Shown: positions 19,202-38,620, counted from the first letter of the stretch. The stretch: DNA of 64,000 bases from Burkholderiales bacterium (GCA_043743335.1 JAYTWR010000149.1:11924-75923); one strand, 5' to 3'. Notes: generated by a model from the letters alone, not told the origin. Translations and numbers: made by a program.

Positions 19202-21769
19202 TTGATACACACCTCAATCAGCAGGAAGGTAGCCTTTGGCGCTGGCGTCATTGTTTTGCTCGCCGTATTCGCCATGGGCACCACCTATTTCATGGCGGCG
19301 GCGGCGATCAAGGCACTGCAAGAGTCGAACGAGCTTTATCAGGCGATGCAGACATCGACCGCCGCCATGCAAGTGGACACCATGGCGGTAGGTTTTGATG
19401 TGCTGCAATATTTCGAAGCGGGCGCGCCGGCGCATCGCCAGTCTTATCAAGAACGCAGCCTACGGCTCGCCCAATTTGCCGAGCGCTTGCTCTCGCTGGC
19501 GCGGTTTCGTGCGTGGCAGGAAATCGGGCCGCTGGTGGCCGAAAAATTGCGGGCATTAGACAAACTCTGTTTAGACCTTATGGCTCAGCGCGATCAGGGC
19601 CAATCCGCTTCGGCGCAGCATGAAAACGTTGCCAAGCTGTTGAAATTACAGCAAGAAACGGTCGAGCTGGTCGGCACTCGTATCAAACCCAAATTGAAGG
19701 TACTGAGCAACGAGGCTGAAAACAAAGCCGGCAACGTAATGATGTGGGTGTTTTTTCTGGCGGGCGGCACGTCGCTACTGCTGTCGCTGTTGGCAGTCTT
19801 CGCGGGCCATTACGTCAGGCGCGCCATTGTCAAACCGGTGCAGCAGCTCGCGGCAAGCGCCAACACCGTGGCCAGCGGTGATTTGAGCCATCGCGTCAAG
19901 CTCACGGCGGACGCCGAGTATATGGCGCTGGCGCGAGACTTCAACAACATGGTCACGCAGTTGCAAATCACCACCGTGTCCAAAACCATGCATGAAGATC
20001 AGGCGACTCAACTACGCGCCTTGCTCGATGGCGTGCGCGATTACGCCATATTTTCCGTTGACGATGAAGGCTATGTCACGAGCTGGAACAGCGCCAGCAC
20101 GCGCATTCTGGGCTATCAGGCCAAAGAAATGGAAGGCGTTTCCTTTGCCCGCATCTTCAAAAATACCACCGAGGCGCGTGAAATCCGCGACGAAGGTTTT
20201 GCAGCCATTAAGGCGACTGGCCGTTTTGAAACCGATACCCATTTGATTAATGCCAGCGGCACGGAATTTGAAGCCAACCTCGTTGTCACGCCCCTCAGCG
20301 CCGTCACCGGTGACGCCAAGGGTTATTCGGTCGTAGTGCGTGACATCACCGAGCGCATGAAAACCGAGCGCCATATCGAGCAATTGGCGACGCGCGATCC
20401 CCTGACAGGCTTGTCCAACCGCAGCATGCTGATGGCGCAAATGTCAGCGGCGATTGCCCGTGCATCGCGCGCGCAATCACAACTGGTGGTGATGTTTATC
20501 GATTTGGATCGCTTCAAGATCATCAACGATACGCTGGGCCACACCGCCGGTGACGAGCTGCTGATCGAGTGCGCCAAGCGCCTGACCGACTGCGTGCGCG
20601 AGGATGATGTGGTGGCGCGGCTCGGTGGCGATGAGTTTGTGGTGCTGCTGTCCGGCGCAACCGGCGCTGCGAGCATTACGCCGATTGTGGATCGCATGCT
20701 CAAGTTGCTGACGACACCCTATCACTTGCGCGGCAATGACGCACAGACTTCCGCCAGCATCGGCATTTGCGTCTATCCCGCCGATGGCAGCGATGTCGCC
20801 ACGCTGATGAAAAATGCCGACATTGCGATGTACCACGCCAAGGCATTGGGTCGCAACAACTACCAGTTCTACGAAGAAGAAATGAACCAGCGCATGTTAA
20901 AGCGCACACAACTCGAACGTGAGCTGCGCGCGGCGCTGGAGAACGGCGAATTCGCCCTGTTTTATCAGCCGCAGGTTGTCGTGGAGACCGGCGCTATCCA
21001 GGGCGCTGAGTCGTTGATCCGCTGGCACCACCCGACGCGAGGATTGGTGTCGCCAGCCGAATTCATTCCCGTGGCCGAAGAAACTGGCCTAATCATCCCC
21101 TTGGGCGAGTGGATACTCGATCATGCCTGCCGCACGATTAAAACGTGGCACGAAAATGGCGTGAATATCCCCTACATTGTCGTCAACGTTTCAGCGGCGC
21201 AACTGAGCAATGATCTGGTGAGCTCTGTGCGCCAAGCCTTGGTCACGCACGGTATTGCGGCCAGTTGGCTGATGCTCGAAATCACTGAAACCATGCTCAT
21301 GGAGCGTGTCGAAGAAGCCATTTTGATCTTGCGCCGCATACGCGAGCTTGGCATACGCATCGCCATGGACGACTTCGGCACCGGGTACTCATCGCTCAGC
21401 GTGCTGCAACGCCTGCCGCTGGATACGCTCAAAATCGACCGCAGCTTTGTCAGCGCCATTGACGACGAGACCGACAACGCGCGCGCCGTGGCCATCATCG
21501 GTGCGATCATCGCCATCGCCAAAGAGCTCAATCTCAGCGTCGTGGCGGAAGGCGTCGAAACGCCCACGCAATTGGCGTTTCTGCGCACCCTCAATTGCGA
21601 TACCTATCAGGGCTACCTCTACAGCAAGCCCATCGATACCATTGCCATGGAAGCCCAGTATTCAGCACCGGCAAAATCTGTGCTGGAAGACGCCCAAGGT
21701 CGCGCCATTACCATGACGGTCAAGGTTAACCTCGAACTCTCTACTGAGGAAATTCAGTTAAGTGTTTGA
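19202..21769 (+). CDS. membrane sensor with HAMP-PAS-GGDEF-EAL domains (TTG start)
   Basis: Two TM helices, HAMP, a PAS region, intact GGDEF (RLGGDEFVVLL) and an EAL domain (ESLIRW, DDFGTGYSS, KIDRSF). Confidence 0.85.
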   Translation: MIHTSISRKVAFGAGVIVLLAVFAMGTTYFMAAAAIKALQESNELYQAMQTSTAAMQVDTMAVGFDVLQYFEAGAPAHRQSYQERSLRLAQFAERLLSLARFRAWQEIGPLVAEKLRALDKLCLDLMAQRDQGQSASAQHENVAKLLKLQQETVELVGTRIKPKLKVLSNEAENKAGNVMMWVFFLAGGTSLLLSLLAVFAGHYVRRAIVKPVQQLAASANTVASGDLSHRVKLTADAEYMALARDFNNMVTQLQITTVSKTMHEDQATQLRALLDGVRDYAIFSVDDEGYVTSWNSASTRILGYQAKEMEGVSFARIFKNTTEAREIRDEGFAAIKATGRFETDTHLINASGTEFEANLVVTPLSAVTGDAKGYSVVVRDITERMKTERHIEQLATRDPLTGLSNRSMLMAQMSAAIARASRAQSQLVVMFIDLDRFKIINDTLGHTAGDELLIECAKRLTDCVREDDVVARLGGDEFVVLLSGATGAASITPIVDRMLKLLTTPYHLRGNDAQTSASIGICVYPADGSDVATLMKNADIAMYHAKALGRNNYQFYEEEMNQRMLKRTQLERELRAALENGEFALFYQPQVVVETGAIQGAESLIRWHHPTRGLVSPAEFIPVAEETGLIIPLGEWILDHACRTIKTWHENGVNIPYIVVNVSAAQLSNDLVSSVRQALVTHGIAASWLMLEITETMLMERVEEAILILRRIRELGIRIAMDDFGTGYSSLSVLQRLPLDTLKIDRSFVSAIDDETDNARAVAIIGAIIAIAKELNLSVVAEGVETPTQLAFLRTLNCDTYQGYLYSKPIDTIAMEAQYSAPAKSVLEDAQGRAITMTVKVNLELSTEEIQLSV

Positions 21770-21790
21770 TTTTATTGATAATTTTAAACG
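21759..21790 (-). repeat. AT-rich junction element, exact core (21759-21771)
   Basis: TAAGTGTTTGATTTTATTGATAATTTTAAACG contains the stop codon of the GGDEF-EAL gene, between convergent genes. Confidence 0.8.
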
Positions 21791-21792
21791 AA

Positions 21793-22512
21793 CTAACGCC
21801 CCCGCGTCGGCGGCGAGCACGCGCGCAGTCGGCCCGCCACACCGGCGTACGATGTCGGCGTGTCGATAGACTGCTGCGCCTCGGTGGCGGCTGCCATTAC
21901 ACGTTCGATCCAGGGTGTCACCAGCGCCTTGGTGCGCTCACGCACATCGGCTTCGGCGTCCTCGCGCGTGGCGTAAATGCGCGCGTCGCCGATTTCCCGT
22001 CGCAGCACGCCCGGCAGCATTTGGGCGCTCGCCCGCAAATGCGACTTCCAGGTGTTGACGTGTTCCTGCTCGTGCGCCCGGATGACTTCACGACGGCAAA
22101 AGTCAGTCAAGTCGCGCGCGAGATAAACCACGAATGCCGAAAATCCTAGCGTCAGCGTGATTTCAGGCACTGCGCATAGCTGCCCCGGCCCGTCGGCCAC
22201 CGCGCGCACGGCCACGCGCAATTGATAAGTGGGTTTGGCATGGGTCAACCCTAAGGTGTTGACGAAGCCACCCGCCGGCTTGTTCGACATTTCGGTTAGC
22301 TTTTGGATGCTAAGGGAATCATCGGATGCCACCACGCGATCCTCAAACTCAACCGTAATCGGTGCCTCGCGCCCGAGGCGCTCACAGCGCTGTGCAAAGT
22401 CCGCTGCAGGCACGTTTGCCGCATGCACGCACATCGATGCGAGCATGGTGCCGACGATTCTCCACATAATTGCGCGAATTAACACAACATTCTTTCTCGG
22501 ATGCGTTCGCAT
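21793..22512 (-). CDS. hypothetical secreted protein with HExxH motif (DUF922-like?)
   Basis: Possible signal peptide (MLASMCVHAANVPA) and an HEQEH motif; family assignment is from memory only. Confidence 0.4.
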   Translation of the reverse strand: MRTHPRKNVVLIRAIMWRIVGTMLASMCVHAANVPAADFAQRCERLGREAPITVEFEDRVVASDDSLSIQKLTEMSNKPAGGFVNTLGLTHAKPTYQLRVAVRAVADGPGQLCAVPEITLTLGFSAFVVYLARDLTDFCRREVIRAHEQEHVNTWKSHLRASAQMLPGVLRREIGDARIYATREDAEADVRERTKALVTPWIERVMAAATEAQQSIDTPTSYAGVAGRLRACSPPTRGR

Positions 22513-22777
22513 GGGCTACCGGGGTGAATCGGTGAACCTTTGGCCGCTACTCGATGTCCGTTGCAAGCGGCGGTCACAGGCTGCCGCATGCGCGCATGCG
22601 GCGTTACGGTAAGTGCTTGTGAAGAGTAAGAAATTTTGTCTCAAGTGTGAATTACTGCCGTAAATTAGTCCGAACGGACTATTGTGTATCTTGTGAGCGT
22701 TGTTATCATTCACGAGTCGATTCGGAACACGAATCGCAATAGTGGCACAAGGCGCTGCGGCACCTCGGAGAGCAAAA

Positions 22778-23536
22778 TTGAATTTTAATAAAATAGCACT
22801 CACCGCCCTCGTAACCTCGGTAACGGCGTTCGCTGGCGCACCCGCGCAGGCCAATACCTACCAATCATTCCTCGAATATACCAACGTCAGTCAGTTCGGC
22901 AGCACCAGCGGTTCGGCCCTCGGCATTCCCAAGCTCACCACGCCTGTCGGCACGGTCACCGTGACTGAAGGTGGTCTCAATGGCAACGGACACTATACCT
23001 ATCTGGATGTCGCTGTTCAGATCAATAGCGGCTTTCGGCTGATCGATGTCGGTAGCCATGAGTTGTTTTCGTATAACTTGACCCAGCCGTCAGCGGTAAC
23101 CATTTCATTTGTCGATCCGAGCAAGTTCGCGACATTTTCTGGCACGCCCTCAACCAATCCGCCTTTTGGCCCGTCGTTTTCCAATGCCGTCACCTGTAAT
23201 ACGGCTAACTACAGTTGCCAAGCCAATACCGGCGGCTCACCGGGCAACCAACTGCTGTTTAGAATCACCGACAAAGCCGGCGGTCCCGACGGGATAGAGG
23301 TTGGCCCGCCAGCGCATGCCGCAACCGCTTTGGTTAATCAATTGATATCCACCGCCGACGGCTGGTGGTTCGCCACCGACCTCGCAAACGCCAATGGCAA
23401 CACGGGTGCCGTCGGTGCACGCGATTTCGTAGTCTTCACCGCCGTACCGGAACCCCAAACCTACGCCATGATGCTGGCGGGCTTGGGTCTGATGGGTTTT
23501 GTGGCCCATCGCCGCAGAAAGCAGCAGGCGGCGTAG
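22778..23536 (+). CDS. PEP-CTERM sorting-domain protein (TTG start)
   Basis: GGAG SD 7 nt upstream of TTG, signal peptide ...AFAGAPAQA, and C-terminal VPEPQTYAMMLAGLGLMGFVAHRRRK. Confidence 0.8.
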   Translation: MNFNKIALTALVTSVTAFAGAPAQANTYQSFLEYTNVSQFGSTSGSALGIPKLTTPVGTVTVTEGGLNGNGHYTYLDVAVQINSGFRLIDVGSHELFSYNLTQPSAVTISFVDPSKFATFSGTPSTNPPFGPSFSNAVTCNTANYSCQANTGGSPGNQLLFRITDKAGGPDGIEVGPPAHAATALVNQLISTADGWWFATDLANANGNTGAVGARDFVVFTAVPEPQTYAMMLAGLGLMGFVAHRRRKQQAA

Positions 23537-23565
23537 CGTTCTGTAGGCTTGCTTCTAAACCCAAA

Positions 23566-23590
23566 CCCCGCTCCGGCGGGGTTTTCTTTT
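23566..23590 (+). terminator. rho-independent terminator
   Basis: CCCCGC-TCCG-GCGGGG hairpin followed by TTTTCTTTT. Confidence 0.7.
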
Positions 23591-23660
23591 GCGGCGGGTC
23601 GTATAATGCACGCCCGGCACTCGACTAACGTTTTTCGAGTTGAGAGTTGCGAGAATAACG

Positions 23661-23680
23661 CTAACTAATTGTTTTATATG
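23661..23680 (-). repeat. AT-rich junction element, variant core (23662-23674)
   Basis: CTAACTAATTGTTTTATATG; the terminal ATG is the MoxR start codon. Confidence 0.7.
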
Positions 23681-24592
23681 ACAAAAATAAACGAGGCTCT
23701 CGCGCAGGTCAGTCACATCATTTTGGGTAAAGAGCGCCAAATCCGCTTGGCCCTAGCGTGCCTGATCGCGCGCGGCCATTTGTTGATTGAGGACGTGCCC
23801 GGCGTCGGCAAAACCACCCTCGCCCACGCGTTAGCCGGCACCTTGGGGCTGGCGTTTCACCGCATCCAGTTCACCAGCGATTTACTGCCGGCGGATGTGC
23901 TGGGCGTGGCGGTATACAACAGCGACGCCGCCCAATTTGAGTTCCACCCCGGGCCAATTTTTTCGCAGGTGGTGCTGGCCGACGAAGTCAACCGCGCTAC
24001 ACCCAAAGCGCAAAGCGCGTTGCTCGAAGCCATGGAAGAACAGCAGGTCACTATCGAAGGCGAAACGCGCAAACTGCCGGAGCCCTTTTTTGTCATCGCC
24101 ACGCAAAATCCCTCACGCCAGATCGGCACGTTTCCGCTGCCGGAGTCGCAACTGGATCGCTTCTTAATGCGTATCGAACTCGGCTACCCAGACGCCGCTG
24201 CCGAACGCGCGCTGCTGCGCGGTGAAAACCGCCGCGATTTGCTGAGTCAACTTAAGCCTGCCTTGCAGCCCGCCGATTTGCTGGCGCTGCAGCGCGAGGC
24301 GCGGCAGGTGCATGTCTCCGACGCGCTGCTCGATTACATCCAAGCGCTGGTCAACCACACGCGCCACAGCGCCGGTTACGCGGGCGGCCTATCGCCGCGC
24401 GCGGCACTGGCGCTGGTGCAGGCCGCGCGCGCTTGGGCGCTGCTGGATGCGCGTACACACGCCGTGCCGGAAGACGTGCAAGCCATTCTGCCGGGCGTGG
24501 TGAGTCACCGGCTGCAAGCCGCCAACGATGGCAGCGGCGGCAGTGGCAATGACGTGGCGGTGCGTCTCTTGGCTGCGGTGGCGATTCCGTAG
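23678..24592 (+). CDS. MoxR-family AAA+ ATPase
   Basis: LIEDVPGVGKTT Walker A, ADEVNRATPKAQSALLEAMEE, FFVIATQNP. Confidence 0.9.
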   Translation: MTKINEALAQVSHIILGKERQIRLALACLIARGHLLIEDVPGVGKTTLAHALAGTLGLAFHRIQFTSDLLPADVLGVAVYNSDAAQFEFHPGPIFSQVVLADEVNRATPKAQSALLEAMEEQQVTIEGETRKLPEPFFVIATQNPSRQIGTFPLPESQLDRFLMRIELGYPDAAAERALLRGENRRDLLSQLKPALQPADLLALQREARQVHVSDALLDYIQALVNHTRHSAGYAGGLSPRAALALVQAARAWALLDARTHAVPEDVQAILPGVVSHRLQAANDGSGGSGNDVAVRLLAAVAIP

Positions 24593-24622
24593 CACAGGCA
24601 CCTGACAGCGCACCCTGAATTC

Positions 24623-25612
24623 ATGTTCGCTGCTTTACGCTCAAGGGCCGCTGCGTGGATGGCACGTCCGCGCACGCCGGAATCCGGCCCTATCGTGCTG
24701 GTGCAGCGGCGCGTGTACATCCTGCCGACGCGTCACGGCATGATCTTCGCCGTGGTGCTGCTGATGATGTTGCTGGGATCAATCAACTATGGCTTGAGCT
24801 TGGGCTTCGTGCTGACGTTTCTGCTGGTGGCGCTGGCCGTTAACGGCATGCTGCATACCTTTCGCAATCTGGCGCATTTGAGCGTGTCGGCGGTGCGTAC
24901 CCCGGCGGTATTTGTGGGCGAGTCGGCGCAATTCACGCTGCATTTAACCAACCCCGGCATCTTGACGCGCCACGCTGTTGGCATCGCACGCGACCGCTAC
25001 GCCCATGCCGTCGAAGACTGCACCGACATTCCTGCGGGCGGCTCCGCGCACCTTAGCGTCCGTGTCGTCGCCGACCGGCGCGGACGCCTGCCCGCCGGAC
25101 GGCTCACGCTCTCTACGCAATTTCCGCTGGGGCTGTACTTTGCGTGGGGCTACGTCCACCTAGATGCCTCGTGCATCGTCTATCCGCGCCCCGCACCGCC
25201 GGGCTTACCGTTGCCGCCAAGCGAGGCCACCGGTGGCGAAGGGGCGCCGCAGGGCGTCGGGCACGACGATTTTTCCGGCTTACGTACCTATCACGCGGGC
25301 GATCCGCCGCGCCACATTGCGTGGAAAGCCGCCGCGCGTGGCCAAGGCTTGCTGACCAAGCAGTTCAGCGGACAGGCTGCTGGCGAAGTCTGGCTGGCCT
25401 GGAACCTGCTCCCGCCGCGCATGGGCATCGAAGAAAAAATAGCCTGCCTCACGCGCTGGGTGCTGGACGCACACGCCTTGCGCATGGCGTATGGCTTGCG
25501 CCTGCCGCGGCTGGCCGTACCGATGGCCAGCGGCGACGCGCAGCGCGAGCGCTGCCTGGAAGCGCTGGCGCTGTACGACACGCCCGAAACATCCGCAGCC
25601 CCGCCATCATGA
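24623..25612 (+). CDS. DUF58 domain protein
   Basis: N-terminal TM pair and DDFSGLRTYHAGDPPRHIAWKA; follows MoxR as in Bat/MoxR operons. Confidence 0.8.
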   Translation: MFAALRSRAAAWMARPRTPESGPIVLVQRRVYILPTRHGMIFAVVLLMMLLGSINYGLSLGFVLTFLLVALAVNGMLHTFRNLAHLSVSAVRTPAVFVGESAQFTLHLTNPGILTRHAVGIARDRYAHAVEDCTDIPAGGSAHLSVRVVADRRGRLPAGRLTLSTQFPLGLYFAWGYVHLDASCIVYPRPAPPGLPLPPSEATGGEGAPQGVGHDDFSGLRTYHAGDPPRHIAWKAAARGQGLLTKQFSGQAAGEVWLAWNLLPPRMGIEEKIACLTRWVLDAHALRMAYGLRLPRLAVPMASGDAQRERCLEALALYDTPETSAAPPS

Positions 25613-27591
25613 ACGCAGTCCAGCCTGCCGCCATCAGCCTGCGCAATACCGTGTGGATTACGCTGACGTTGGCGTTGATTGCCGCACCGCACGCCGAGCG
25701 CCTGCCTTGGTGGTTGAGCCTGCTGGCAGCAGCGTTTTGCGCTTGGCGGCTGTATATCGCGCGCATGCGACTGGCGCTGCCCGCGCGTTGGCTCATGGTT
25801 TTGATCGTGGCCGCCGGATCCGTGGCCATTTTTGTGCAGTACCGCACTTTGCTCGGGCGCGATGCGGGCGTCGCGCTGCTGGTGCTGATGATCTCGTTAA
25901 AGCTGATGGAAACGCGCACCCAGCGCGATGGCATGGTACTCGCCTTCATCGGCTACTTTTTGGTCATTACCAATTTTTTCTACTCGCAGTCGATCCCTAT
26001 GGCGCTGTATTTGCTGGCCTGTGTGTGGCTGATCACCGCCACCATGATGGGGCTGCAATACACCTACACGCGCGAACCCGCCGCTTATCGTACGCAAGTG
26101 CGCGCTCAATTGCGCGCCACGGGCATCATGCTGGCGCAGTCGGCGCCGCTGATGATTGTTTTCTTTTTGCTGTTTCCGCGTGTGCAGGGGCCGCTGTGGG
26201 GCATGCCGTCAGATGCCTTCGCCGGCGTCACGGGCCTCTCAGAAAGCATGAGTCCGGGCACGCTGAACAAACTGGTGTTTTCCGAAGAAGTCGCCCTGCG
26301 CGCCACGTTTGCGGGCCGTGTGCCGCCGCAGAACCGGCTGTATTGGCGCGGGCCGGTACTGATTGATTTTGATGGCCGCACGTGGACTGCCGCGCCGCGT
26401 GGGCTACGCAATCAAATCGAAGTGAATCGCCGCGAAAACCCTGTGCGATACACCGTGACCGTAGAGCCGCACAACCGGCGTTGGCTGTTTGCGCTGGATA
26501 TCCCCGGCACACTGCCGCCGCGCGCGATGATCACGGTAGATCATCTGTTACTGTCGCAAATGCCCATCACCAGTCGTCTGCGCTACGACATGGAGTCGTT
26601 TCTCGACTACACCATCGGCGCGGATTTCAACCCAATTTCTGCGCGCATGCTGGCGTTGCCGCGCAACTTCAATCCGCAAACCCGCGAGCTGGGACAACAA
26701 CTGCGCGCGCAACACAACGACAATCAGGCCATCGTGACCGCCGCGCTCACGCTGCTGCGCGAGCAGAAGTTTGTCTATACGCTAGAGCCGCCGCTGCTTG
26801 GCACGCATGCGGTGGATGAGTTTTTATTCAAAACACGCGCGGGCTTTTGCGAACACTTTGCTTCGGCCTTTGTCGTGCTGATGCGCGCGGCGGGCGTGCC
26901 GTCGCGGGTAGTCACCGGCTATCTGGGGGGCGAATACAACTCGCTCGGTGAGTACTTAATTGTGCGTCAATCCGATGCGCACGCGTGGGCCGAAGTGTGG
27001 ATCGAAAATCGCGGCTGGGTGCGCGTCGATCCGACCAACTCGGTGTCGCCCGCGCGCGCCGAGGGCGGTCTCGCGGCGGCGCTGCCGGACGGCATTTCGC
27101 TGCCGCGTAGCCTGCGTGAAAGCTATCCGCTACTGCATCAGTTGTCCTTGACGCTGGATTCGCTGGCCAATGCCTGGAACCAAACCATCCTCGGCTACAA
27201 CCTCGAAACCCAGCGCGCGCTGATGTTGCGTGCAGGGCTGGAAGACGCCGATTGGCAAACGTTGGTGATACTGCTGATCGCGGCCACCGGCGTCACCACG
27301 TTGCTGCTGGCGCTGTTCATGCTGCGCAACCGTGCGCGGCAGCGCGACCCCGTGCTTGATGCCTGGCTGTTGTTCTGCGCCAAAGCCGCGCATGCGGGCG
27401 TGGCACGGCACGCCGCCGAAGGCCCGCAGGATTTCGCCAACCGCTTAGCCAAAGCGCGGCCTGACATCGCGGCTGACGCGCAGGTGATTACGCGACTCTA
27501 TGTTGGGTTACGCTACGCCAGCACTGAAGCCCCCGGCGAGCGCCATGAGCTACAGCGGCGCGCGCAGCAGTTCACCATAAAATCCATTTAA
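25609..27591 (+). CDS. tgpA: transglutaminase-like membrane protein (TgpA family)
   Basis: ATGA overlap with the DUF58 stop, polytopic N-terminus, and Cys-His-Asp core (FCEHFASAF, SDAHAWAEVW, VRVDPT). Confidence 0.8.
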   Translation: MNAVQPAAISLRNTVWITLTLALIAAPHAERLPWWLSLLAAAFCAWRLYIARMRLALPARWLMVLIVAAGSVAIFVQYRTLLGRDAGVALLVLMISLKLMETRTQRDGMVLAFIGYFLVITNFFYSQSIPMALYLLACVWLITATMMGLQYTYTREPAAYRTQVRAQLRATGIMLAQSAPLMIVFFLLFPRVQGPLWGMPSDAFAGVTGLSESMSPGTLNKLVFSEEVALRATFAGRVPPQNRLYWRGPVLIDFDGRTWTAAPRGLRNQIEVNRRENPVRYTVTVEPHNRRWLFALDIPGTLPPRAMITVDHLLLSQMPITSRLRYDMESFLDYTIGADFNPISARMLALPRNFNPQTRELGQQLRAQHNDNQAIVTAALTLLREQKFVYTLEPPLLGTHAVDEFLFKTRAGFCEHFASAFVVLMRAAGVPSRVVTGYLGGEYNSLGEYLIVRQSDAHAWAEVWIENRGWVRVDPTNSVSPARAEGGLAAALPDGISLPRSLRESYPLLHQLSLTLDSLANAWNQTILGYNLETQRALMLRAGLEDADWQTLVILLIAATGVTTLLLALFMLRNRARQRDPVLDAWLLFCAKAAHAGVARHAAEGPQDFANRLAKARPDIAADAQVITRLYVGLRYASTEAPGERHELQRRAQQFTIKSI

Positions 27592-27605
27592 AATCAATTA
27601 GTTAC
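27577..27605 (+). repeat. AT-rich junction element, exact core (27592-27604)
   Basis: ATAAAATCCATTTAAAATCAATTAGTTAC contains the tgpA stop codon, lies 25 nt upstream of the SDR ATG, and is 28/29 identical to the 28451 copy. Confidence 0.9.
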
Positions 27606-27629
27606 CGTTAATCTAAAAGCTGAATCCCC

Positions 27630-28409
27630 ATGAATCTCGAACTGACCGGACTCACCGCACTCGTCACGGGTGCCTCGCGTGGCATCGGCTTTGCCGTGGC
27701 GCAAGCTTTCGCGCGTGAAGGCTGCCATCTGCACATGGTGGCCCGTACGAGTGCCGATCTTAAGGTGGCGCGCGACAAAATACGCGCTGAAAGCAACGTC
27801 AACATTATCACCCACGCGCTGGATCTCAGCGTGAGCGCCAATATCAACGCCATGGGCAAGCATTGCGACGGCGTGGATATACTCGTCAACAACGCGGGCG
27901 GGATTCCATCGGGTCATTTGCTCGACATTGACGAAGCCCGCTGGCGTGCCGCGTGGGAACTCAAGGTGTTCGGCTATATCAACCTCACCCGTGAAATCTA
28001 TCGCGGCATGTGTGCGCGCAAGCGTGGGGTGATTGTCAATGTGATCGGCGTTGCCGGCGAACGCCTGCGGCAGGATTACATCGCCGGTGGCACCGGCAAC
28101 GCAGCGCTGATGGCGTTCACCCGCAACCTTGGCGGCGAGAGCGTCGATTACGGCGTGCGCGTGATCGGCATCAATCCCGGTCAAATTGAAACCGACCGGC
28201 TGCGCGAGCGCCTCGAAAAGCGCGCGCAAAACGAACTCGGCGACAAAAAGCGCTGGCTGGAACTGGTCGAAGACCCGCCCTTCGGGCGCCTCGCACAGCC
28301 GGACGAAGTGGCCGATGCGGTGTTGTATTTGGCTTCCGCGCGAGCGTCGTACATCAGTGGCACCATTCTCACCGTGGATGGCGGGCGCGCGGTGCGGCAT
28401 GCGACTTGA
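27630..28409 (+). CDS. short-chain dehydrogenase/reductase (SDR)
   Basis: TGASRGIG, NNAG, 259 aa. Confidence 0.85.
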   Translation: MNLELTGLTALVTGASRGIGFAVAQAFAREGCHLHMVARTSADLKVARDKIRAESNVNIITHALDLSVSANINAMGKHCDGVDILVNNAGGIPSGHLLDIDEARWRAAWELKVFGYINLTREIYRGMCARKRGVIVNVIGVAGERLRQDYIAGGTGNAALMAFTRNLGGESVDYGVRVIGINPGQIETDRLRERLEKRAQNELGDKKRWLELVEDPPFGRLAQPDEVADAVLYLASARASYISGTILTVDGGRAVRHAT

Positions 28410-28446
28410 GCGTTAGTCTGAAAACTGCTTTTTATTTTTCAAGCCC

Positions 28447-29436
28447 ATGAATAAAATTCATTTAAAATCAATTAGTTACAAAATATTTCCCCACGCGGTG
28501 TGGGCGCTGCTGCTGGCTGCAGGCGCGTCATTCGCCCAGCCCTACCCCACCAAACCCGTGCGCATTGTCGTGCCCTACCCGCCCGGCGGCGGCGTGGATG
28601 TGGTGGCGCGCGTGGTGGGCCGTAAGCTGACGGACACGTTGGGCCAGCCGGTGATTGTCGAAAATCGCGGTGGTGCCTCGGGCGCTTTGGGCGCTGACAT
28701 CGTGGCTAAAGCCCCGCCCGACGGCTACACCATGGGCCTCATGACCAGCACCGTGCTGATGGTGCCCGCGCTGCAAAAAGTGCCTTACGACGCGGCCAAA
28801 GACTTTGCGCCGATTATTCTGTTTGCCTCGATATCGAACATCTTGGTGGTGCATCCATCGCTGCCGGTGAAATCATTGCAGGACGTGATGCGTCTTGCGC
28901 GCGAGCGTCCCGGCGAGCTCACCCACGCCACCTCCGGCCCCGGCAGCGTACCGCATCTGATGATGGAGCTGCTGCGCACCATGACGCCGCGCTTTGACAT
29001 TGTGCACGTGCCGTACAAAGGCAACGCGCAAGCCATTACCGATTTGCTTGGCGGGCACATCACCATGCACATTTCGTCCATGCTGTCGGCTGTGCCCTAC
29101 ATCAAAACCGGTCGCTTACGCCCGATAGGCGTCACCAGCGCCAAGCGCTCACGCGCGGTGCCAGACGTGCCAACGTTCGCCGAGTCCGGCGCGCCCGGCT
29201 ATGACGTGAGTTCGCTGTGGGGATTTCTCGCGCCCGCGCAAACGCCGCCGGACATCATTAACCGGCTGTATGGCGATATCGGCAAAGTGCTACGTTACCA
29301 AGATGTCAACGACCAGCTCGTCGGGCAAGGCGCGGATATTTCCGGCGCAGGCCCGCAGGAATATGGCGCGCTGTGGCGGGCCGAACTCGCCAAATGGCCC
29401 AAGGTAGTAGCTGCGGCAAAAATCAAGGCGGAATAA
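28447..29436 (+). CDS. Bug/TctC-family tripartite tricarboxylate transporter substrate-binding protein
   Basis: QPYPTKPVRIVVPYPPGGGVDVVAR and VPYKG; 329 aa. The first 12 codons are encoded by the AT-rich junction element. Confidence 0.85.
   Translation: MNKIHLKSISYKIFPHAVWALLLAAGASFAQPYPTKPVRIVVPYPPGGGVDVVARVVGRKLTDTLGQPVIVENRGGASGALGADIVAKAPPDGYTMGLMTSTVLMVPALQKVPYDAAKDFAPIILFASISNILVVHPSLPVKSLQDVMRLARERPGELTHATSGPGSVPHLMMELLRTMTPRFDIVHVPYKGNAQAITDLLGGHITMHISSMLSAVPYIKTGRLRPIGVTSAKRSRAVPDVPTFAESGAPGYDVSSLWGFLAPAQTPPDIINRLYGDIGKVLRYQDVNDQLVGQGADISGAGPQEYGALWRAELAKWPKVVAAAKIKAE
28451..28479 (+). repeat. AT-rich junction element, exact core (28466-28478)
   Basis: ATAAAATTCATTTAAAATCAATTAGTTAC lies inside the first codons of the Bug gene (NKIHLKSISY). 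Confidence 0.9.
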
Positions 29437-29568
29437 AGCGCCTACCCGCATAAGCTGTTTCGACCTACAATTCGTCAACGTGCAGGCGGTAGCAGCGTTT
29501 GAGACTTTGAGCCGCACGCGTGATGGCTGTACTGACCGTAACGACCAACAACATAAGGGGGAATTCAC

Positions 29569-29859
29569 ATGCTGCATTTTCTTTGGATCGCATTGATCGG
29601 TTTTGCTGCGGGCTTCATTGCGCGCGCATTGCATCCCGGCAAGGATAATCTGGGCTTCATCATGACGGCGGTGCTCGGTGTGGCCGGCTCGTTTGGCGCG
29701 ACGTACCTCGGCCAGATTCTCGGCCTCTACAAGCAAGGCGAAAACGCTGGCTTTATTATGTCGGTCATCGGCGCAGTCGTGCTGCTGGTTATTTACGGTT
29801 TTGTCGCGAAGAAAAAAGACGGCGGTGACGGCAGCAGCGGAGGTGGCACATCGAACTAA
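29569..29859 (+). CDS. GlsB/YeaQ/YmgE-family stress membrane protein
   Basis: AAGGGGG SD; FLWIALIGFAAGFIARAL..G with three TM helices. Confidence 0.75.
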   Translation: MLHFLWIALIGFAAGFIARALHPGKDNLGFIMTAVLGVAGSFGATYLGQILGLYKQGENAGFIMSVIGAVVLLVIYGFVAKKKDGGDGSSGGGTSN

Positions 29860-29897
29860 TTCGCTGGCCAGCGCTACGGCTCCCCACGCTTTATCCC

Positions 29898-30419
29898 ATG
29901 CGCAGCGGACAGCTAAATAGCGCTGCGCCGACGGCCTCCACCGCGCTGGCCCTGCCCGGCAACGCGGCGGCGCTGGACGCTGCGGTCAAGCGCGCCAACG
30001 CCGTGGTTACCCGCCGTGCGGCGCTGGCCTCGGCTGCGTCGCTGGTGCCCTTGCCAGGGCTCGATCTCGCCGTGGATATCGCTGCGGTAATGAGGCTCAT
30101 CCCCGCGATCAATCAAGAGTTTGGCCTAACGCCCGCGCAAATTGCCAAACTCAGCCCCGCCCGACAGTTGATGGTTTACAAATCCATAGTGGCGGTGGGC
30201 AGTGTGATGATCGGAAAACTCGTCACCAAAGAAATCGCCATCGGGGTGCTGAAAACCGTGGGCGTGCGTCTCACCGCCAAGCAAGCGGGCAAATACGTGC
30301 CGGTGGCCGGCCAAGCGTTGTCCGTGGTGCTGGGATTCGCGGCGATGAAATACGTGGGGCAGCAGCACATCAACGACTGTCGCAGCGTCGTCGAAGCCAC
30401 ACTACCGCGTGAGGCTTGA
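29898..30419 (+). CDS. DUF697-like protein
   Basis: LVPLPGLDLAVDIAAVMRLIPAINQEFGL resembles the YcjF/DUF697 pattern; assignment from memory. Confidence 0.45.
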   Translation: MRSGQLNSAAPTASTALALPGNAAALDAAVKRANAVVTRRAALASAASLVPLPGLDLAVDIAAVMRLIPAINQEFGLTPAQIAKLSPARQLMVYKSIVAVGSVMIGKLVTKEIAIGVLKTVGVRLTAKQAGKYVPVAGQALSVVLGFAAMKYVGQQHINDCRSVVEATLPREA

Positions 30420-30515
30420 GCACACCGAGCGTGCGGTGAACTCAGCGCGATACGGCGTCAGGCCTGCTATCATTGGGGCCGCCGCAATGTGGCTGGAATT
30501 AAATGCCTGCTACAG

Positions 30516-30544
30516 TATAATAATCAATAAAATCAATTAGTTAC
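30516..30544 (+). repeat. AT-rich junction element, exact core (30531-30543)
   Basis: TATAATAATCAATAAAATCAATTAGTTAC, 25 nt upstream of the malonyl-CoA decarboxylase ATG. Confidence 0.85.
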
Positions 30545-30568
30545 GCATAATATTTCGCCGCCCTCAGC

Positions 30569-31897
30569 ATGGCTCCCTCCTTATTGAAACGGCTGGTGCG
30601 CACCGTGGTGCCGCCGCCCAACGAAGCCGCCCGCGCCAGCCGTCACGCAGCCAAGGTCATTGATGCCTGGCGCGAGCTTCTGTCTGACCGTGGTGAAGTC
30701 TCCGGTGCGGCCATCGCGCGCGAAGCGCTGGGCGCTTGGCGCGATTTCGATACGGCCTATTTGCCGGCATTTTTTGACCGCCTTGCGGCAGAATTTTCAC
30801 CGGAAGAAGCCGCATTGCGCGCCGCTGCCCAGCGCTACATCGCCGAACCTTCCGCACCGCACTTGATGCACCTGCAGCGCATCGCTGCATCGCCGCGCCA
30901 GGAATTGTTTCGCCGCCTGAATCAAGCGCCCGAAGGCACCGTCACGCTGGTGCACCTGCGAAAAAATTTGCTGTCCCAGATGGCCGACCACCCTGAATGG
31001 CAGGTCATCGACGCCGATCTGGTGCACTTGTTCAATTCGTGGTTCAACCGCGGATTTTTGACGCTGCAGCGCATCGACTGGCACACGCCGGCCATCGTGC
31101 TGGAAAAGCTCATCGAATATGAAGCGGTGCATGAAATCTCCGGCTGGCCCGACTTGCGCCGCCGTCTGCAAAGTGACCGGCGTTGCTTCGCTTTTTTCCA
31201 CCCGGCCTTACCCAACGAGCCGCTAATTTTCATCGAAGTGGCCTTGGTCAAAGGCATTAGCAGCGCCGTACAGCCGTTGCTGGACATCAACGCACCAGTC
31301 GCCGATCCCGAAAAAGCAGATACGGCGGTGTTTTACTCCATCACCAACTGTCAGCCGGGTTTACGTGGCGTATCGTTCGGCAACCTGTTGATTAAACAAG
31401 TGGCGCAGCGCTTGGGCGAAGAATTCCCGCGCATCAAGACCTTTTCCACGCTGTCGCCGATACCGGGCTTCACTGCGTGGCTGGCGGCTAACGCCAGCAG
31501 CGTGTCCGAACCCGCCAAAGCCGTGCTGCAAAACCTGCTGGTGCCGGACTGGCACCGTCAATCGACACTGGTGGCATCGCTGCAAAAGGTGCTGCCGCCC
31601 CTGTGCTCACATTATCTGTTGCATGCAACCCATGACGGTGCGCCGGCCGATCCGGTAGCCCGTTTTCACTTGGGCAACGGCGCCCGCGCTGAACGGCTTA
31701 ACTGGCTGGCTGACACCTCGGCACGCGGCGTGAAAAATTGCGCGGGCATGATGGTCAATTACGTCTACCATCTCGACCAAATCGAAGACAATCACGAACA
31801 CTATGTGCGCGAACATCGCGTCGCCGCCACGCACGACATGCGGCGACTGGCGCGCGAAAGCACGCTGGCAGACCCCGCTATAACGCACAAGCACTAA
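30569..31897 (+). CDS. malonyl-CoA decarboxylase
   Basis: FFHPALPNEPLIFIEVAL, AVFYSITNCQPGLRGVSFGNLLIKQV, TFSTLSPIPGF. Confidence 0.85.
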   Translation: MAPSLLKRLVRTVVPPPNEAARASRHAAKVIDAWRELLSDRGEVSGAAIAREALGAWRDFDTAYLPAFFDRLAAEFSPEEAALRAAAQRYIAEPSAPHLMHLQRIAASPRQELFRRLNQAPEGTVTLVHLRKNLLSQMADHPEWQVIDADLVHLFNSWFNRGFLTLQRIDWHTPAIVLEKLIEYEAVHEISGWPDLRRRLQSDRRCFAFFHPALPNEPLIFIEVALVKGISSAVQPLLDINAPVADPEKADTAVFYSITNCQPGLRGVSFGNLLIKQVAQRLGEEFPRIKTFSTLSPIPGFTAWLAANASSVSEPAKAVLQNLLVPDWHRQSTLVASLQKVLPPLCSHYLLHATHDGAPADPVARFHLGNGARAERLNWLADTSARGVKNCAGMMVNYVYHLDQIEDNHEHYVREHRVAATHDMRRLARESTLADPAITHKH

Positions 31898-31923
31898 CGC
31901 ACAAGCAGTAACGGAACACCCCT

Positions 31924-32373
31924 ATGGAAATGACCGGCGAACAACTCATCCCGCAACCGCAGGATGTCACCTGGAAAGCGCTCAACGACACGGCGGTGCT
32001 GAAAGCCTGCATTCCCGGCTGTGAATCCATTGAACAAACCGGCGACAACGAATATCAGTTGGTGATGGTGGCCAGAGTCGGCCCGGTCAGTGCCAAGTTC
32101 AAGGGCAAAATGACGCTGTCGAATATCGTCGCACCGCAATCCTACCGCTTGGCGTTTGAAGGTTCTGGCGGTGTGGCCGGATTCGCCAAGGGCGAGGCCA
32201 GCGTGCACCTCTCACCCGGCGACGGTGGTACCAAGCTCGCGTATGCCTGCAACGCCATGATCGGCGGCAAGCTGGCGCAGGTGGGCTCACGTCTCATTGA
32301 CGGCGTGGCAAAAAAAATTGCGGGGGAGTTTTTTACCGCGTTTAATACGCAGGTCAGCGCGCTAGGGAAGTAA
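31924..32373 (+). CDS. CoxG/SRPBCC-family protein
   Basis: 149 aa with GPVSAKFKG...GGKLAQVGSRLIDGVAKK, typical of CoxG. Confidence 0.75.
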   Translation: MEMTGEQLIPQPQDVTWKALNDTAVLKACIPGCESIEQTGDNEYQLVMVARVGPVSAKFKGKMTLSNIVAPQSYRLAFEGSGGVAGFAKGEASVHLSPGDGGTKLAYACNAMIGGKLAQVGSRLIDGVAKKIAGEFFTAFNTQVSALGK

Positions 32374-32392
32374 CGGCGACCGCTGAATTGGA

Positions 32393-32421
32393 CACAGAGG
32401 CCGCAGAGGACACATAGGACG
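32393..32421 (+). repeat. CACAGAGG-type element, copy 2
   Basis: CACAGAGGCCGCAGAGGACACATAGGACG, about 20 nt after the CoxG stop codon. Confidence 0.6.
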
Positions 32422-32428
32422 AAAGCGC

Positions 32429-33067
32429 CTATTCCTTAGCCCCGGCTTTCGTCAAAATCCGCACGATTTCATCGTTATTGCGCTGTTTAGCAGCGGCCAG
32501 CGCGGTGTAGCCATTGGGCGCTTTGTTGCTGATGTTGGCCCCGTATTCCATCAACAGCAGCACGGCCTGCGTTTGCCCTTCGCGTGCGGCGAGCATGAGC
32601 GCGGTCAGCCCGGCGGCATTTGACGCATCTATTTTGGCACCGCGCACCAGCAAAAATCGCATCACATCGATACGGTTCATCGACGCCGCATACATCAGCG
32701 GCGTCCAGCCGCCGTGATCGATTTGCGCGCCCTCCGCCAGCAGCGCCTTTACCACCTCTAGGTGGCCTTTAATGGCAGCCAGCATCAGCGCACTTTCGCC
32801 GAAGCTGTTCAGCGCAGCAACCTTGGGCTTGGCCGACAGCAACGTTTTGATGACAGTCATATTGCCTTCTTTGGCCGCCATCATCAAAAAGGAGTCGCCT
32901 TCCTTGTTGACTGAATTCACGTCCAAGCCCTTTTGCAGCAGGTTCGAAACCGTGCTTTGATCGCCCAAGCCGATGGCGCGGATCATGTCTTCATAGACCG
33001 CTGCAGCGCAAAAACCTGCTGAAAACATCAGGCAGCAGGCTAAAAAATATCGAATAAACAACTTCAT
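32429..33067 (-). CDS. secreted ankyrin-repeat protein
   Basis: Signal peptide followed by about 5 ANK repeats (G.T.LM.AA..G....V..LL..GA). Confidence 0.85.
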   Translation of the reverse strand: MKLFIRYFLACCLMFSAGFCAAAVYEDMIRAIGLGDQSTVSNLLQKGLDVNSVNKEGDSFLMMAAKEGNMTVIKTLLSAKPKVAALNSFGESALMLAAIKGHLEVVKALLAEGAQIDHGGWTPLMYAASMNRIDVMRFLLVRGAKIDASNAAGLTALMLAAREGQTQAVLLLMEYGANISNKAPNGYTALAAAKQRNNDEIVRILTKAGAKE

Positions 33068-33077
33068 GTTTAGTTCC

Positions 33078-33119
33078 TAACTATTTGAATAATTTAATAA
33101 AATTATTTGTAGTATTTTC
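33078..33119 (-). repeat. AT-rich junction element, degenerate/expanded copy (core 33078-33090, 1 mismatch)
   Basis: TAACTATTTGAATAATTTAATAAAATTATTTGTAGTATTTTC encodes the tatD tail ENTTNNFIKLFK and its stop codon. Confidence 0.6.
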
Positions 33120-33839
33120 GGCAATCCATTCAAACGTGCAGCCTCGCAAGCGTGCGATTTCTTCCGCTACATGCTTGACCAGCCCCGGCTCATTGGTCTT
33201 GCCGCGAAACGGCACAGGCGCCAAATACGGCGAATCGGTCTCGATCAGCATGCGATCCAGTGGCACTTTTTGCGCCACTTCCTTTAGCGCTTTGGCGTTT
33301 TTGAAGGTGACGATGCCGGAAAACGAAATGTAAAAACCCATGTCCAGCGCGGCTTGTGCCACTTCCCAAGTCTCGGTAAAACAATGCATCACGCCGCCCG
33401 CTTCTTGCGCACCCTCGGCCTGCATAATACGTAAGGTGTCATCGGCAGCCGATCTTGTGTGAATAATCAAAGGCTTAGCAGATTTTTTGGCGGCCTGGAT
33501 GTGGTTGCGAAAACGCTGCCGTTGCCATTCCAAATCGCCGGTTAGTCGGTAATAATCCAGTCCTGTTTCGCCGATGGCGACGATTTTCGGGTGCTGCGCC
33601 AATCTGACCAACTCATCGACAGAGGGTTCAGTCACATCCGGATAATCCGGATGCACGCCCACCGAGGCATATAGCTGCTCATGCGCCTCCGCCAGCGCTA
33701 AAACCTGTGGGAAATCTTCCATATTGACGCTGACACACAACGCATGCGTCACTTGATTCTCGCGCATGCGCGCCAAAACTTCGTCGAGACGGGCTGCAAG
33801 CTCAGGAAAATCCAAGTGGCAGTGGGAATCTATGAGCAT
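33081..33839 (-). CDS. tatD: TatD-family metal-dependent hydrolase
   Basis: MLIDSHCHLDF, IGETGLDY, ETDSPYL. Confidence 0.9.
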   Translation of the reverse strand: MLIDSHCHLDFPELAARLDEVLARMRENQVTHALCVSVNMEDFPQVLALAEAHEQLYASVGVHPDYPDVTEPSVDELVRLAQHPKIVAIGETGLDYYRLTGDLEWQRQRFRNHIQAAKKSAKPLIIHTRSAADDTLRIMQAEGAQEAGGVMHCFTETWEVAQAALDMGFYISFSGIVTFKNAKALKEVAQKVPLDRMLIETDSPYLAPVPFRGKTNEPGLVKHVAEEIARLRGCTFEWIAENTTNNFIKLFK

Positions 33840-34832
33840 TTAGGCTCGCAGCAGTTGGGCGTAACGCAGCATCAAATCTTCCAGTAGCAGACGCGGGTTT
33901 AGAGGGTGATTCACAATCCGCTGAAAACGCACCAATTCGCGGTGATAGCGCATAATTTCCAATGTATTCATGCGTTTTGTGGCAGAAATTAGCGCATCTT
34001 TTCGGTCAGGATTGTAACGTAATGGCTGCCCCAAACTCAGTCGCACCAAATCATAACTCCAGCGCTGTAACCAATTGATTATTTGAGGAATTGGCTGAGC
34101 AGCGCAACGCTCTGCCACGGCCAGCGGGTCGAATTCCCGGCTGGAAAGCCCCTCCAGCAGTTGCTGCCGCCCTGCCCAATAGTCCGGCGTATCGAGTTCT
34201 ACGGCCAGCAAAGGGGCTCCGCCAGCTTGGGCCAAGGCCAAATCGGGCTGCGAAATGCCGCTTTTTGCCAACCAGGCGGCGGCTTCCGGCGCAGAGGGCG
34301 GTGGCAGTGCGATTTGTTGACAGCGGCTGCGTAGGGTCGCAGGCAGCATGTGAGACCGGTCGCTGACCAGTAAGAAATGGGTGTGGGGCGGCGGCTCTTC
34401 TAGGCTTTTCAACAACGCATTGGCCGCGTTGACGTTCATCGCTTCAGCGGGCTGCACCACCACCACTTTGACGCCACTGCGATGCGCGCTGATATTGATA
34501 AACTCTGCTAAGGAACGCACCTGCGCTATCGATATATCGCGCTTTTTCTTTTTATCGGACGGTTCGTCGTCAGCGGCGGCTTCAGCGATTTCCGGCTGTA
34601 ACAGGCGGTAATCGGGGTGGTTCCCGGTGTCGAACCAATGGCAGGCTTGACACGCGCCGCAGGCCTGCAGCGGCGCAGTCGGTGCCTCGCACAGCAGGCC
34701 TTTGGCCAGCGCTGCGGCAAACTCACGCTTGCCGATGCCGGCTGGACCTTTGAATAAAAGGGCATGCGGCAACTGCGCCGCGCGCTGGGCGAGTTGCTGG
34801 TACTGCCTTTCATGCCATTTATAAATAGTCAT
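33840..34832 (-). CDS. holB: DNA polymerase III delta' subunit
   Basis: [22 protein letters not shown] zinc module, [11 protein letters not shown]. Confidence 0.85.
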
Positions 34833-34858
34833 TTAAAACAATTACTTACAATTACTTC
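34829..34858 (+). repeat. AT-rich junction element with duplicated core (variant AAACAATTACTTA, 34836-34848)
   Basis: TCATTTAAAACAATTACTTACAATTACTTC. ACAATTACTT occurs twice in tandem. The copy carries the tmk stop, the holB start and the tmk tail. Confidence 0.75.
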
Positions 34859-35452: not shown

Positions 35453-35460
35453 TTGCGCCC

Positions 35461-37276: not shown

Positions 37277-37298
37277 GGCAACGGCCAGCGGCGCGCGT

Positions 37299-38546: not shown

Positions 38547-38620
38547 GGTATCTTGGGGTTAAGTGCGACGGGTTAAATACGGCCCTCAAAAACTACACCG
38601 GCGGATCAGCGCCAAGCGCG

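Follow-up and report, generated by a model that had tools for sequence, protein, structure and literature searches.

Dispersed IHF-like sites at the gene junctions of an uncultured Burkholderiales genome and a near-identical pair of copies around an SDR gene

Sites for integration host factor (IHF) are described by a consensus, by an A-tract in the strongest sites, and by a 35-bp footprint (PMC8421141). Such sites also occur within repeats. [quoted passage not shown] The subject of this work is a 64,000-nt stretch of a Burkholderiales bacterium (GCA_043743335.1, JAYTWR010000149.1:11924-75923), referred to at its full length as the window, in which two 29-nt direct copies of one element enclose a gene for a short-chain dehydrogenase/reductase (SDR). 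These two 29-mers are members of a dispersed, non-palindromic, AT-rich family of sites of about 30 nt. The explanation favored here, which is given somewhat more than an even chance of holding as a whole, is that the family consists of dispersed IHF-type sites kept in situ, that the left copy of the pair is ancestral, and that the right copy was gained recently and in this genome alone.

A dispersed family of short sites at gene junctions

The element is laid out as an A-tract, a gap of 8 nt, and the core AATCAA-NNNN-TTA. A search of the window with the core AAAATCAATTAGTTA, allowing at most three mismatches, gives 23 matches on both strands, compared with 0-2 in shuffled sequence. A position weight matrix (PWM) derived from these core matches extends over approximately 28-31 nt (TAAAATAnTCAATAAAATCAATTAGTTA) and detects 24 copies with scores of at least 25 bits in the 64 kb, while five shuffles contain none scoring 14 bits or more. 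The copies are divided between the plus (13) and minus (11) strands, with a median spacing of about 2 kb and a density of about one per 2.7 kb, and their mean pairwise identity is 19/29 (276 pairs). Six perfect 15-mers are found in the 64 kb. In this uncultured betaproteobacterial genome, which has a GC content of about 58%, the element is present in approximately half of the usable spacers between genes.

The unit measures 29-31 nt, has unrelated flanks, and shows no inverted symmetry, terminal inverted repeats (TIRs), or target-site duplication. Six copies folded together with their flanks form no hairpin (z-scores of -1.0 to +1.7 relative to shuffles). An Rfam scan of the whole window returns a single tRNA and no family for the motif. 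In 21001-41000, no sigma70-like promoter is predicted to overlap a copy. No terminator coincides with a copy, and the sole strong one in the vicinity of a copy, at 23563-23584, does not overlap that copy. A BLAST search with the consensus 33-mer against PLSDB plasmids and 5,426 Escherichia coli genomes yields weak, unannotated intergenic matches (E ≥0.02) and no named feature, and no published description of the motif was found in the literature. In a comparison by eye, which is not counted as a test, the consensuses for FNR, Fur, CtrA, Xer/dif, sigma54, and uptake sequences do not fit the motif either.

According to a gene map that is itself a rough call from open reading frames (ORFs) and the GC content of third codon positions (GC3), 23 of the 24 copies lie in intergenic spacers or overlap their ends, while intergenic DNA accounts for about 13% of the window. 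In many cases, spacers of 12-47 nt are hardly longer than the motif. Copies supply the stop codons of the genes at 5394-6407 and 426-920 and of tgpA (25609-27591, plus strand), the transglutaminase-like final gene of a conserved MoxR-DUF58-TgpA operon, and they abut or overlap the start codons of rlmB, fabD, MoxR, and the gene at 52809. They split the cistrons of classic operons (sucA|sucB, fabH|fabD, fabG|acpP, rnr|rlmB, and hisS/Z|purA) and are also found between unrelated genes, between convergent genes, and between divergent genes. Genes directly behind a copy mostly have no Shine-Dalgarno (SD) sequence, while elsewhere the organism has good ones.

This arrangement raises the prospect of an element acting at the RNA level, as an unstructured AU-rich intercistronic module that replaces the SD sequence through S1-dependent initiation, or as an RNase E processing site. 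The overlap with start codons, the shortage of SD sequences behind the copies, the unstructured character of these regions, and the positions between classic-operon cistrons would all suit such a role, as would the copy upstream of the SDR gene, which keeps its orientation and its nearness to the ATG in five lineages. However, a strongly asymmetric sequence of 15-28 nt is conserved in both orientations to transcription (about 9 head-first and 11 tail-first relative to the downstream gene in a manual tabulation). Furthermore, copies occur between convergent gene ends (917 and 21758) and within the 3' coding region of tgpA regardless of the gene that follows, and AU-richness alone gives no account of sequence-specific conservation. 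An RNA-level element is therefore considered quite unlikely as the primary explanation.

Comparison with relatives, which comprised genome-collection relatives and closer metagenomic contigs (numbered with the prefix L), shows that copies are kept in place while the surrounding spacer diverges. This is the case after the GGDEF/EAL gene, at the MoxR start, and before the SDR gene. The copy at 23661-23691 (minus strand), which abuts or overlaps the MoxR start (ATG at 23678) and is inverted relative to the copy at the end of tgpA, has a conserved position in L020, L039/41, and L042, and L043 retains only a sub-threshold remnant. The copy at 21758-21788 (minus strand), between the convergent ends of the GGDEF/EAL gene and the next gene, persists as a conserved island in both L039 and L043. 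Inside the 3' coding region of tgpA, five relatives carry an in-frame copy, whatever gene comes next. Its core, AAT AAA AAC AAA TAC TTA, encodes N-K-N-K-Y-L, and the codons of these in-frame copies have a GC3 of 0.2-0.4, compared with 0.66-0.83 for the gene. The motif thus appears to be kept under selection at the DNA level even inside coding sequence.

The same junction illustrates turnover. In the window and in L046, the copy within the tgpA coding sequence has been lost (the window reads YASTEAPGER), and a copy in the spacer about 45 nt downstream is kept. In L039, the in-frame copy is kept and the spacer copy has decayed. Such turnover, with one site per junction, favors a function over selfish spread. 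The sites would be held in place by selection at a rate of approximately one per gene junction, and would be tolerated over stop codons, start codons, and even coding sequence, rather than being the ends of mobile elements.

The element shares with the DNA uptake sequences (DUS) of Neisseriaceae and the uptake signal sequences (USS) of Pasteurellaceae a genome-wide density, the use of both orientations, an abundance that is specific to a clade, and a turnover that proceeds by point mutation. Uptake sequences are clade-restricted motifs that occur in coding as well as non-coding DNA and that the competence machinery takes up preferentially. An uptake signal accumulated by biased uptake and recombination would be consistent with the density of one copy per 2.7 kb on both strands, with the high fidelity to the consensus, with gain and loss through point changes at orthologous sites, and with a density that falls to approximately zero copies in about 400 kb of sequence from relatives with TgpA identity of at most 57%. 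In contrast to DUS and USS, the element is AT-rich, about 30 nt long, almost exclusively intergenic, and strongly conserved in position. In addition, an identical 20-mer is found as single copies in a large number of unrelated contigs with high GC content and also in a gammaproteobacterial lineage, and the motif appears to match IHF sites closely. An uptake signal is thus judged very unlikely.

Among dispersed repeats, the E. coli BIME/RIB-RIP and REP elements are similar in distribution. Like the element, they are dispersed and extragenic, lie between the genes of operons and at the 3' ends of transcription units, and the resemblance extends to copy numbers in the hundreds and to an association with IHF, putative in the case of the element. 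The extragenic position in or at the ends of transcription units and the high copy number are both found for the element. REP and BIME elements differ in that they contain a GC-rich palindrome or stem-loop, whereas the element is essentially a bare IHF-like site that does not fold into a hairpin, and no link between it and a RAYT-type transposase was seen. The Correia elements and Coxiella MITEs are at least 100-150 bp long and have terminal inverted repeats and target duplications, while the element has a length of 30 nt and neither of these features. None of the properties that define a MITE (TIRs, target-site duplication, and a length of at least 50 bp) is present. The TAACTGA repeats of Beggiatoaceae and cyanobacteria are likewise abundant short intergenic motifs, and the reverse complement of the element begins with TAACTAA, but those repeats form tandem heptamer arrays, whereas the sites described here are single, asymmetric, 30 nt long, and of mixed orientation (PMC4679880).

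A selfish MITE- or REP-like repeat spread by transposition, with the focal pair as its newest insertion, would explain how an exact 29-nt unit could be copied without flanking homology and why the distribution resembles that of REP and BIME elements. The lack of TIRs, target-site duplication, and hairpin and a length far below that of MITEs do not fit such a repeat. Moreover, its copies are diverged from each other, are conserved at orthologous positions rather than polymorphic, and include only one near-identical pair. This origin is regarded as highly improbable.

The candidate protein that reads the element

The protein that reads the element is most likely a nucleoid-associated DNA-bending protein of the IHF type. 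We infer binding by IHF from the form of the site, and its role would be architectural or regulatory. The strict consensus WATCAANNNNTTR has 15 matches in the 8.6 kb of intergenic DNA, compared with 0.29 in composition-matched shuffles. The core consensus WATCAR-NNNN-TTR has 22 strict matches in the window, and 17 of these lie inside element copies. The remaining copies have A in place of T (AAACAA), which departs from the IHF consensus. In strong IHF sites, an A/T-tract is located on the other arm, roughly one helical turn upstream. The information content of the PWM peaks in a TAAAAT tract that ends 8 nt before the W position, and the same spacing between A-tract and W is found in the H' site of phage lambda (NC_001416). 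In the 601-bp lambda attP region, the best match to the core PWM is the H2 site (AATCAACTACTTA), with 12.8 bits. The full PWM ranks H2, H', and H1 second to fourth of approximately 1,140 positions, in the right register and on the right strand, with scores that are within the shuffle range.

The lambda attP sites H', H1, and H2, with the consensus WATCARNNNNTTR and an upstream A-tract, are described sites that invite comparison, and the element core AATCAA-NNNN-TTA fits this consensus. The length of about 30 nt is close to the 35-bp footprint, both kinds of site are asymmetric and used in either orientation, and H2 itself appears to be nearly a member of the element family. The element differs from ordinary IHF sites in its far higher fidelity and density, in its extra conserved positions, and in the preference of relatives for AAACAA.

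Several observations weigh against this assignment, in addition to the roughness of the gene map on which the placement and the intergenic share depend. The lambda sites score only 1.5-4 bits against an AT-rich background, which is not above the shuffle maxima. The consensus of the relatives, AAAAACAAATAsTTA, has A replacing the T of WATCAA and is thus off the canonical IHF consensus. The motif also contains information beyond that consensus, namely a TA inside N4 and an upstream TCAAT. Because of these extra conserved positions and the AAACAA of the relatives, a different or additional protein may be involved. Finally, the fact that genes behind copies mostly lack an SD sequence hints at a role at the RNA level as well.

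The alternative in which another DNA-binding protein reads the element, such as a nucleoid protein of another kind, an H-NS/MvaT-like silencer, or a global regulator with a very wide reach, would leave the genomic behavior of the element unchanged. It draws on the same extra positions and on the preference of relatives for AAACAA over ATCAA. A high-affinity H-NS motif is reportedly TCGATAAATT, to which TCAATAAAAT bears a resemblance. Against such a protein, the asymmetric combination of A-tract and core with lambda H'-like spacing and the match to lambda H2 fit IHF best, as does the occurrence of the 20-mer across betaproteobacterial and gammaproteobacterial contigs. Another protein is consequently a minority prospect that deserves to be kept in mind, and IHF is retained as the preferred candidate.

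The exact 20-mer TCAATAAAATCAATTAGTTA is found in at least 120 metagenome contigs. In 46 of these, the GC content is at least 55%, for which the chance expectation is, by our estimate, far below one, and their 5' flank is 82% AT. Several Bug-rich betaproteobacterial contigs have a density of the element similar to that of the window. The contig L119 (Ga0233425_10009269; 41% GC) has four copies (TATCAATAAAATCAATGAATTAG) within 12.6 kb, located at 2385-11818, and is gammaproteobacterial according to its L25 protein, which is 58-65% identical to those of metagenome-assembled genomes (MAGs) labelled Coxiellaceae and Gammaproteobacteria. High density is clade-specific. Because the 20-mer occurs in unrelated high-GC and gammaproteobacterial contigs, the reader of the element is expected to be conserved well beyond the clade, which fits IHF. 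L119 also contains a gene of the Rpn nuclease/transposase family at 3505-4398. In two groups of unrelated contigs (L074, L087, and L099; L105, L130, L147, and L152), the 20-mer is embedded in longer shared contexts, for example GGACGTCGGTGGATA[20-mer]TGTGTCGATTGTGCTATGG, which may represent conserved regulatory regions or the ends of mobile elements with a strong IHF-type site.

If IHF reads the element, this genome would provide a natural system for asking why a sharp DNA bend is placed at nearly every gene boundary, with insulation of supercoils or transcription and sub-structuring of operons as suggested roles. It would also provide a clean training set for the recognition of IHF sites outside enterics. 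It is of note in any case that in a GC-rich uncultured lineage one motif of about 30 nt resembling a protein site fills about half of the spacers and displaces Shine-Dalgarno sequences, overlaps stop and start codons, is kept at orthologous junctions, and shows one-site-per-junction turnover. The motif may furthermore account for the places where contigs break and for unusual gene starts in MAGs of this clade.

The near-identical pair and the SDR-Bug unit

The left copy of the pair occupies 27575-27605 on the plus strand (PWM score 38.6 bits), which is the 29-mer at 27577-27605 together with 2 nt of PWM extent. The right copy, at 28449-28479 on the plus strand (40.7 bits), contains the 29-mer 28451-28479 and lies within the 5' end of the ORF for a TctC/Bug periplasmic receptor. 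The initial annotation of this stretch described the two 29-mers as direct copies identical at 28 of 29 positions, which is confirmed here. The single mismatch is C/T at 27584/28458, and 100 dinucleotide shuffles contain no such match. The copies enclose the SDR gene alone, as had been proposed, since the only ORF in the interval is that of 259 codons at 27630-28409 on the plus strand (Pfam adh_short 1.2e-39, adh_short_C2 3.7e-40), which starts 24 nt downstream of the 3' edge of the left copy. The pair is also the most alike in the window, with 28/29 compared with 26/29 for the next-best of 276 pairs among the 24 copies. Blastn of ±150 nt around both copies finds no homology beyond the 29-mer, and the likeness ends exactly at its borders.

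The left copy was correctly recognized as supplying the tgpA stop codon (TAA at 27589-27591). The right copy does lie within the predicted signal peptide of the Bug receptor, but it covers codons 2-11 rather than the first 12. The Bug/TctC gene (28447-29436, plus strand; Pfam TctC 1.1e-65), a conserved partner of the SDR gene, begins from ATG 28447 with MNKIHLKSISYK, and the gene caller applied to the identical contig L001 selects the same start. The sole in-frame alternative downstream is GTG 28498, which would leave a signal peptide of 13 residues without a charged N-region; for this reason, the predicted start at ATG 28447 is plausible.

Single genes flanked by two copies are not limited to this locus. 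The same arrangement is seen within the window for maf and for the 171-aa ORF at 43299 and, in L047, for an acyl-CoA dehydrogenase gene, and the whole MoxR-DUF58-TgpA operon is located between inverted copies in the window, L020, L039/41, and L042. At this density of copies, such bracketing is expected by chance.

It had further been suggested that the SDR gene moved as a cassette bounded by the element, which would make it a mobile module flanked by a pair of direct recombination sites, comparable to integron attC cassettes or to Xer-dependent pdif modules. The locus superficially resembles the attC arrays and the pdif/Xer modules of Acinetobacter in having a single gene between two 28-29-nt sites, which here are in the same orientation, 28/29 identical, and bracket exactly one gene. 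SDR orthologs with 85-89% identity are also found in four or more distinct genomic contexts. The MoxR-DUF58-TgpA operon is widespread, but tgpA is followed by neither the SDR nor the Bug gene in 36 relatives from the genome collection (TgpA identity of at most 71%, the nearest being a betaproteobacterial MAG with 71%).

The closer contigs decide against the cassette. L039-L041 have the same order, tgpA-SDR-TctC, as the window (TgpA 80%, SDR 88%, and Bug 85% identical). Their SDR|TctC junction lacks a copy and their tgpA|SDR spacer retains no more than a decayed remnant, CACTTTATGTCAACCTCGGTAAC, yet they carry the element family at other sites. The retention of this order in relatives where the sites are absent or decayed is largely the finding that the initial annotation had named as telling against the proposal. 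In L050, L172/L173, and L174, SDR orthologs (85-88%) are divergent from a small hypothetical gene, share the upstream sequence CGCTACACTG, and have a same-orientation copy that ends 5-12 nt before the SDR ATG. TctC directly follows SDR in L050, where it is an 86% ortholog of the window Bug gene, and in L172 and L173, where its start overlaps the SDR end or lies 13 nt further on, with no copy between. In L050, L172, and L173, the SDR gene thus has an upstream copy alone, with a TctC gene attached downstream. Unlike the two-arm palindromic sites of attC and pdif, the element has no inverted arms or foldable hairpin; gene order is kept without the sites, one site travels, and copies lie in either orientation between genes of all kinds, including inside the sucAB and fab operons. 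Neither presence and absence of the gene together with bounding sites, nor the site architecture with a recombinase, is found at the SDR locus, and no integrase or Xer gene was seen among the genes nearby. The SDR gene shows no compositional anomaly (GC3 of 0.72, compared with 0.71-0.73 in its neighbors). Movement as an element-bounded cassette is consequently considered extremely improbable, which means that the locus offers no new mobile-element biology and that the bracketing itself is ordinary.

The conserved unit is instead the SDR gene and the Bug gene with one upstream copy. The divergence of SDR tracks that of Bug (88% and 85% identity to L039). L046, the closest contig (TgpA 86%), carries a copy at the stop of tgpA, and the SDR start comes next, as it does in the window. 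This copy is 23/29 identical to the left copy of the window. The L046 contig ends 78 nt into SDR, so that the comparison stops before its SDR|Bug junction. In L047-L049 (SDR 89%), there is no copy and an ordinary SD sequence is present. Judging from its occurrence in five lineages, the left copy appears to have belonged to the SDR 5' region ancestrally. The SDR|Bug junctions of L039-41, L050, L172, and L173 do not have the right copy, and by this comparison it appears private to the genome of the window. One further candidate, the SDR and TctC genes after tgpA in L043/44, was considered as an inverted version of the locus and rejected, as these are paralogs (32% and 35% identity). In L047-L049, at about 6780-6900, the Bug gene 3' of the SDR ortholog is cut after the conserved ...IIVPYPP motif and followed by unrelated AT-richer sequence, probably at an insertion or rearrangement breakpoint. 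L002, an SRR23617268 contig of the same organism, starts 13 nt before the SDR ATG, just 3' of the left copy (position 1-14), which may reflect a break of the assembly at this repeat.

The high identity of the pair argues for a recent duplication or recombination between the copies, which the initial annotation had offered as one of its explanations. The left copy is only 23/29 identical to its ortholog in L046 but 28/29 identical to its neighbor 874 bp away. At five of the six positions where the left copy and the L046 ortholog differ, the right copy shares the state of the left copy. A model with independent columns predicts 0.005 pairs at 28/29 or better, although this model is too strict, since subfamilies exist and more pairs at 25-26/29 are seen than it predicts. 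On the evidence of these comparisons, it is therefore likely that the 29-nt unit was copied, or converted over a short patch, in a single event within this lineage.

Coincidence or convergent selection within a subfamily, without any copying event, would be in line with the excess of pairs at 25-26/29 and with the recurrence of the shared non-consensus (C/T)CATTTAAAA, TTTAAAA being present in 6 of the 24 window copies. The probability that the best pair would be adjacent by chance is 0.08, which also tempers the case for copying. The agreement of the right copy with the left at five of six positions and the distance to the next-best pair, at only 26/29, speak against coincidence, which is judged unlikely. 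Two further points count against a copying mechanism. Neighboring copies are no more alike than others (19.4 versus 19.4 of 31), and because there is only one near-identical pair, the mechanism depends on a single event. Local copying as the routine mode of spread was rejected on this negative neighbor-effect test.

According to the favored explanation, the left copy would have traveled together with the SDR-Bug pair to the position that it now occupies after tgpA. The right copy would then have arisen as a 29-nt unit copied from the left copy, or through short-patch conversion between both, and would have become part of the N-region in the signal peptide of Bug. A broader proposal is that a stand-alone "super-consensus" IHF-type site of about 30 nt has been amplified to about one per junction in a clade of Bug-rich betaproteobacteria that are uncultured, and in an independent event in a lineage of gammaproteobacteria, as genome-wide architectural punctuation that is maintained even at the cost of coding sequence and SD sites, and that exact 29-nt units of it can also be propagated with no homology in the flanks. 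This proposal is put forward as speculative and rather doubtful. If it is true, exact-unit propagation would imply that short patches are copied by a dedicated mechanism, of a kind that is not known from any bacterial repeat.

Further copies and neighboring features

The other copies illustrate the range of junctions involved. The copy at 6404-6434 (minus strand) fills the 33-nt spacer between a Zn-ADH gene and an AMP-ligase gene and contains the Zn-ADH stop TAA. At 9853-9883 (plus strand), a copy separates rnr (RNase R) and rlmB, and the rlmB start is the reverse complement of the CAT at its edge. The copy at 13861-13891 (plus strand) lies between a hisS/hisZ-like gene and purA, and that at 30514-30544 (plus strand) is 24 nt 5' of a malonyl-CoA decarboxylase gene. 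Between fabG and acpP, a copy is present at 39044-39074 (plus strand), with fabG placed by tblastn at 39821-39099. The fabH|fabD copy at 40757-40787 (plus strand) is followed by extra AATAGTTA units to approximately 40803; at 40765-40803, these trailing tandem "head" units read AATAGTTA AATAGTTA AATCGTTA. The sucA|sucB copy is at 61685-61715 (minus strand). The copy at 46979-47009 (minus strand; 33 bits) is in frame within an ADP-forming acyl-CoA synthetase-like gene (46549-48642; GC3 of 0.72), where it encodes ISNITQLKQSL in the ATP-grasp part.

The remaining copies at or above the threshold of 25 bits are located at 917-947 (minus strand, between convergent gene ends), 2516-2546(+), 3535-3565(+), 33077-33107(-), 34819-34849(+), 43202-43232(-), 43963-43993(+), 44637-44667(-), 48641-48671(-), 50831-50861(+), 52772-52802(-), and 54842-54872(+). 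In the copy at 50831-50861, the variable N4 of the core reads GGAG (AATCAAGGAGTTA; 50846-50864), 7 nt before the TTG start of a GFO/IDH/MocA oxidoreductase gene, and this motif seems adapted to double as a Shine-Dalgarno sequence. The strong terminator near the MoxR-proximal copy is a canonical intrinsic one (AAACCCCGC-TCCG-GCGGGGTTT and a T-run), located 3' of a PEP-CTERM protein gene and about 80 nt before the copy, which indicates that the organism uses ordinary terminators.

Two Bug/TctC remnants are also present in the window. The one at 3083-3223 covers residues 20-66 only, and the one at 44660-45078 covers residues 22-70 and 153-273, with an internal loss. The latter starts right after the copy at 44637-44667, at the place where the signal peptide would be expected. 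Finally, a tandem 9-nt repeat, TTGTTCTCG, unrelated to the element, extends over approximately 9-10 units at 8990-9078 between the convergent genes at 8140-8883 and 9109-9855.

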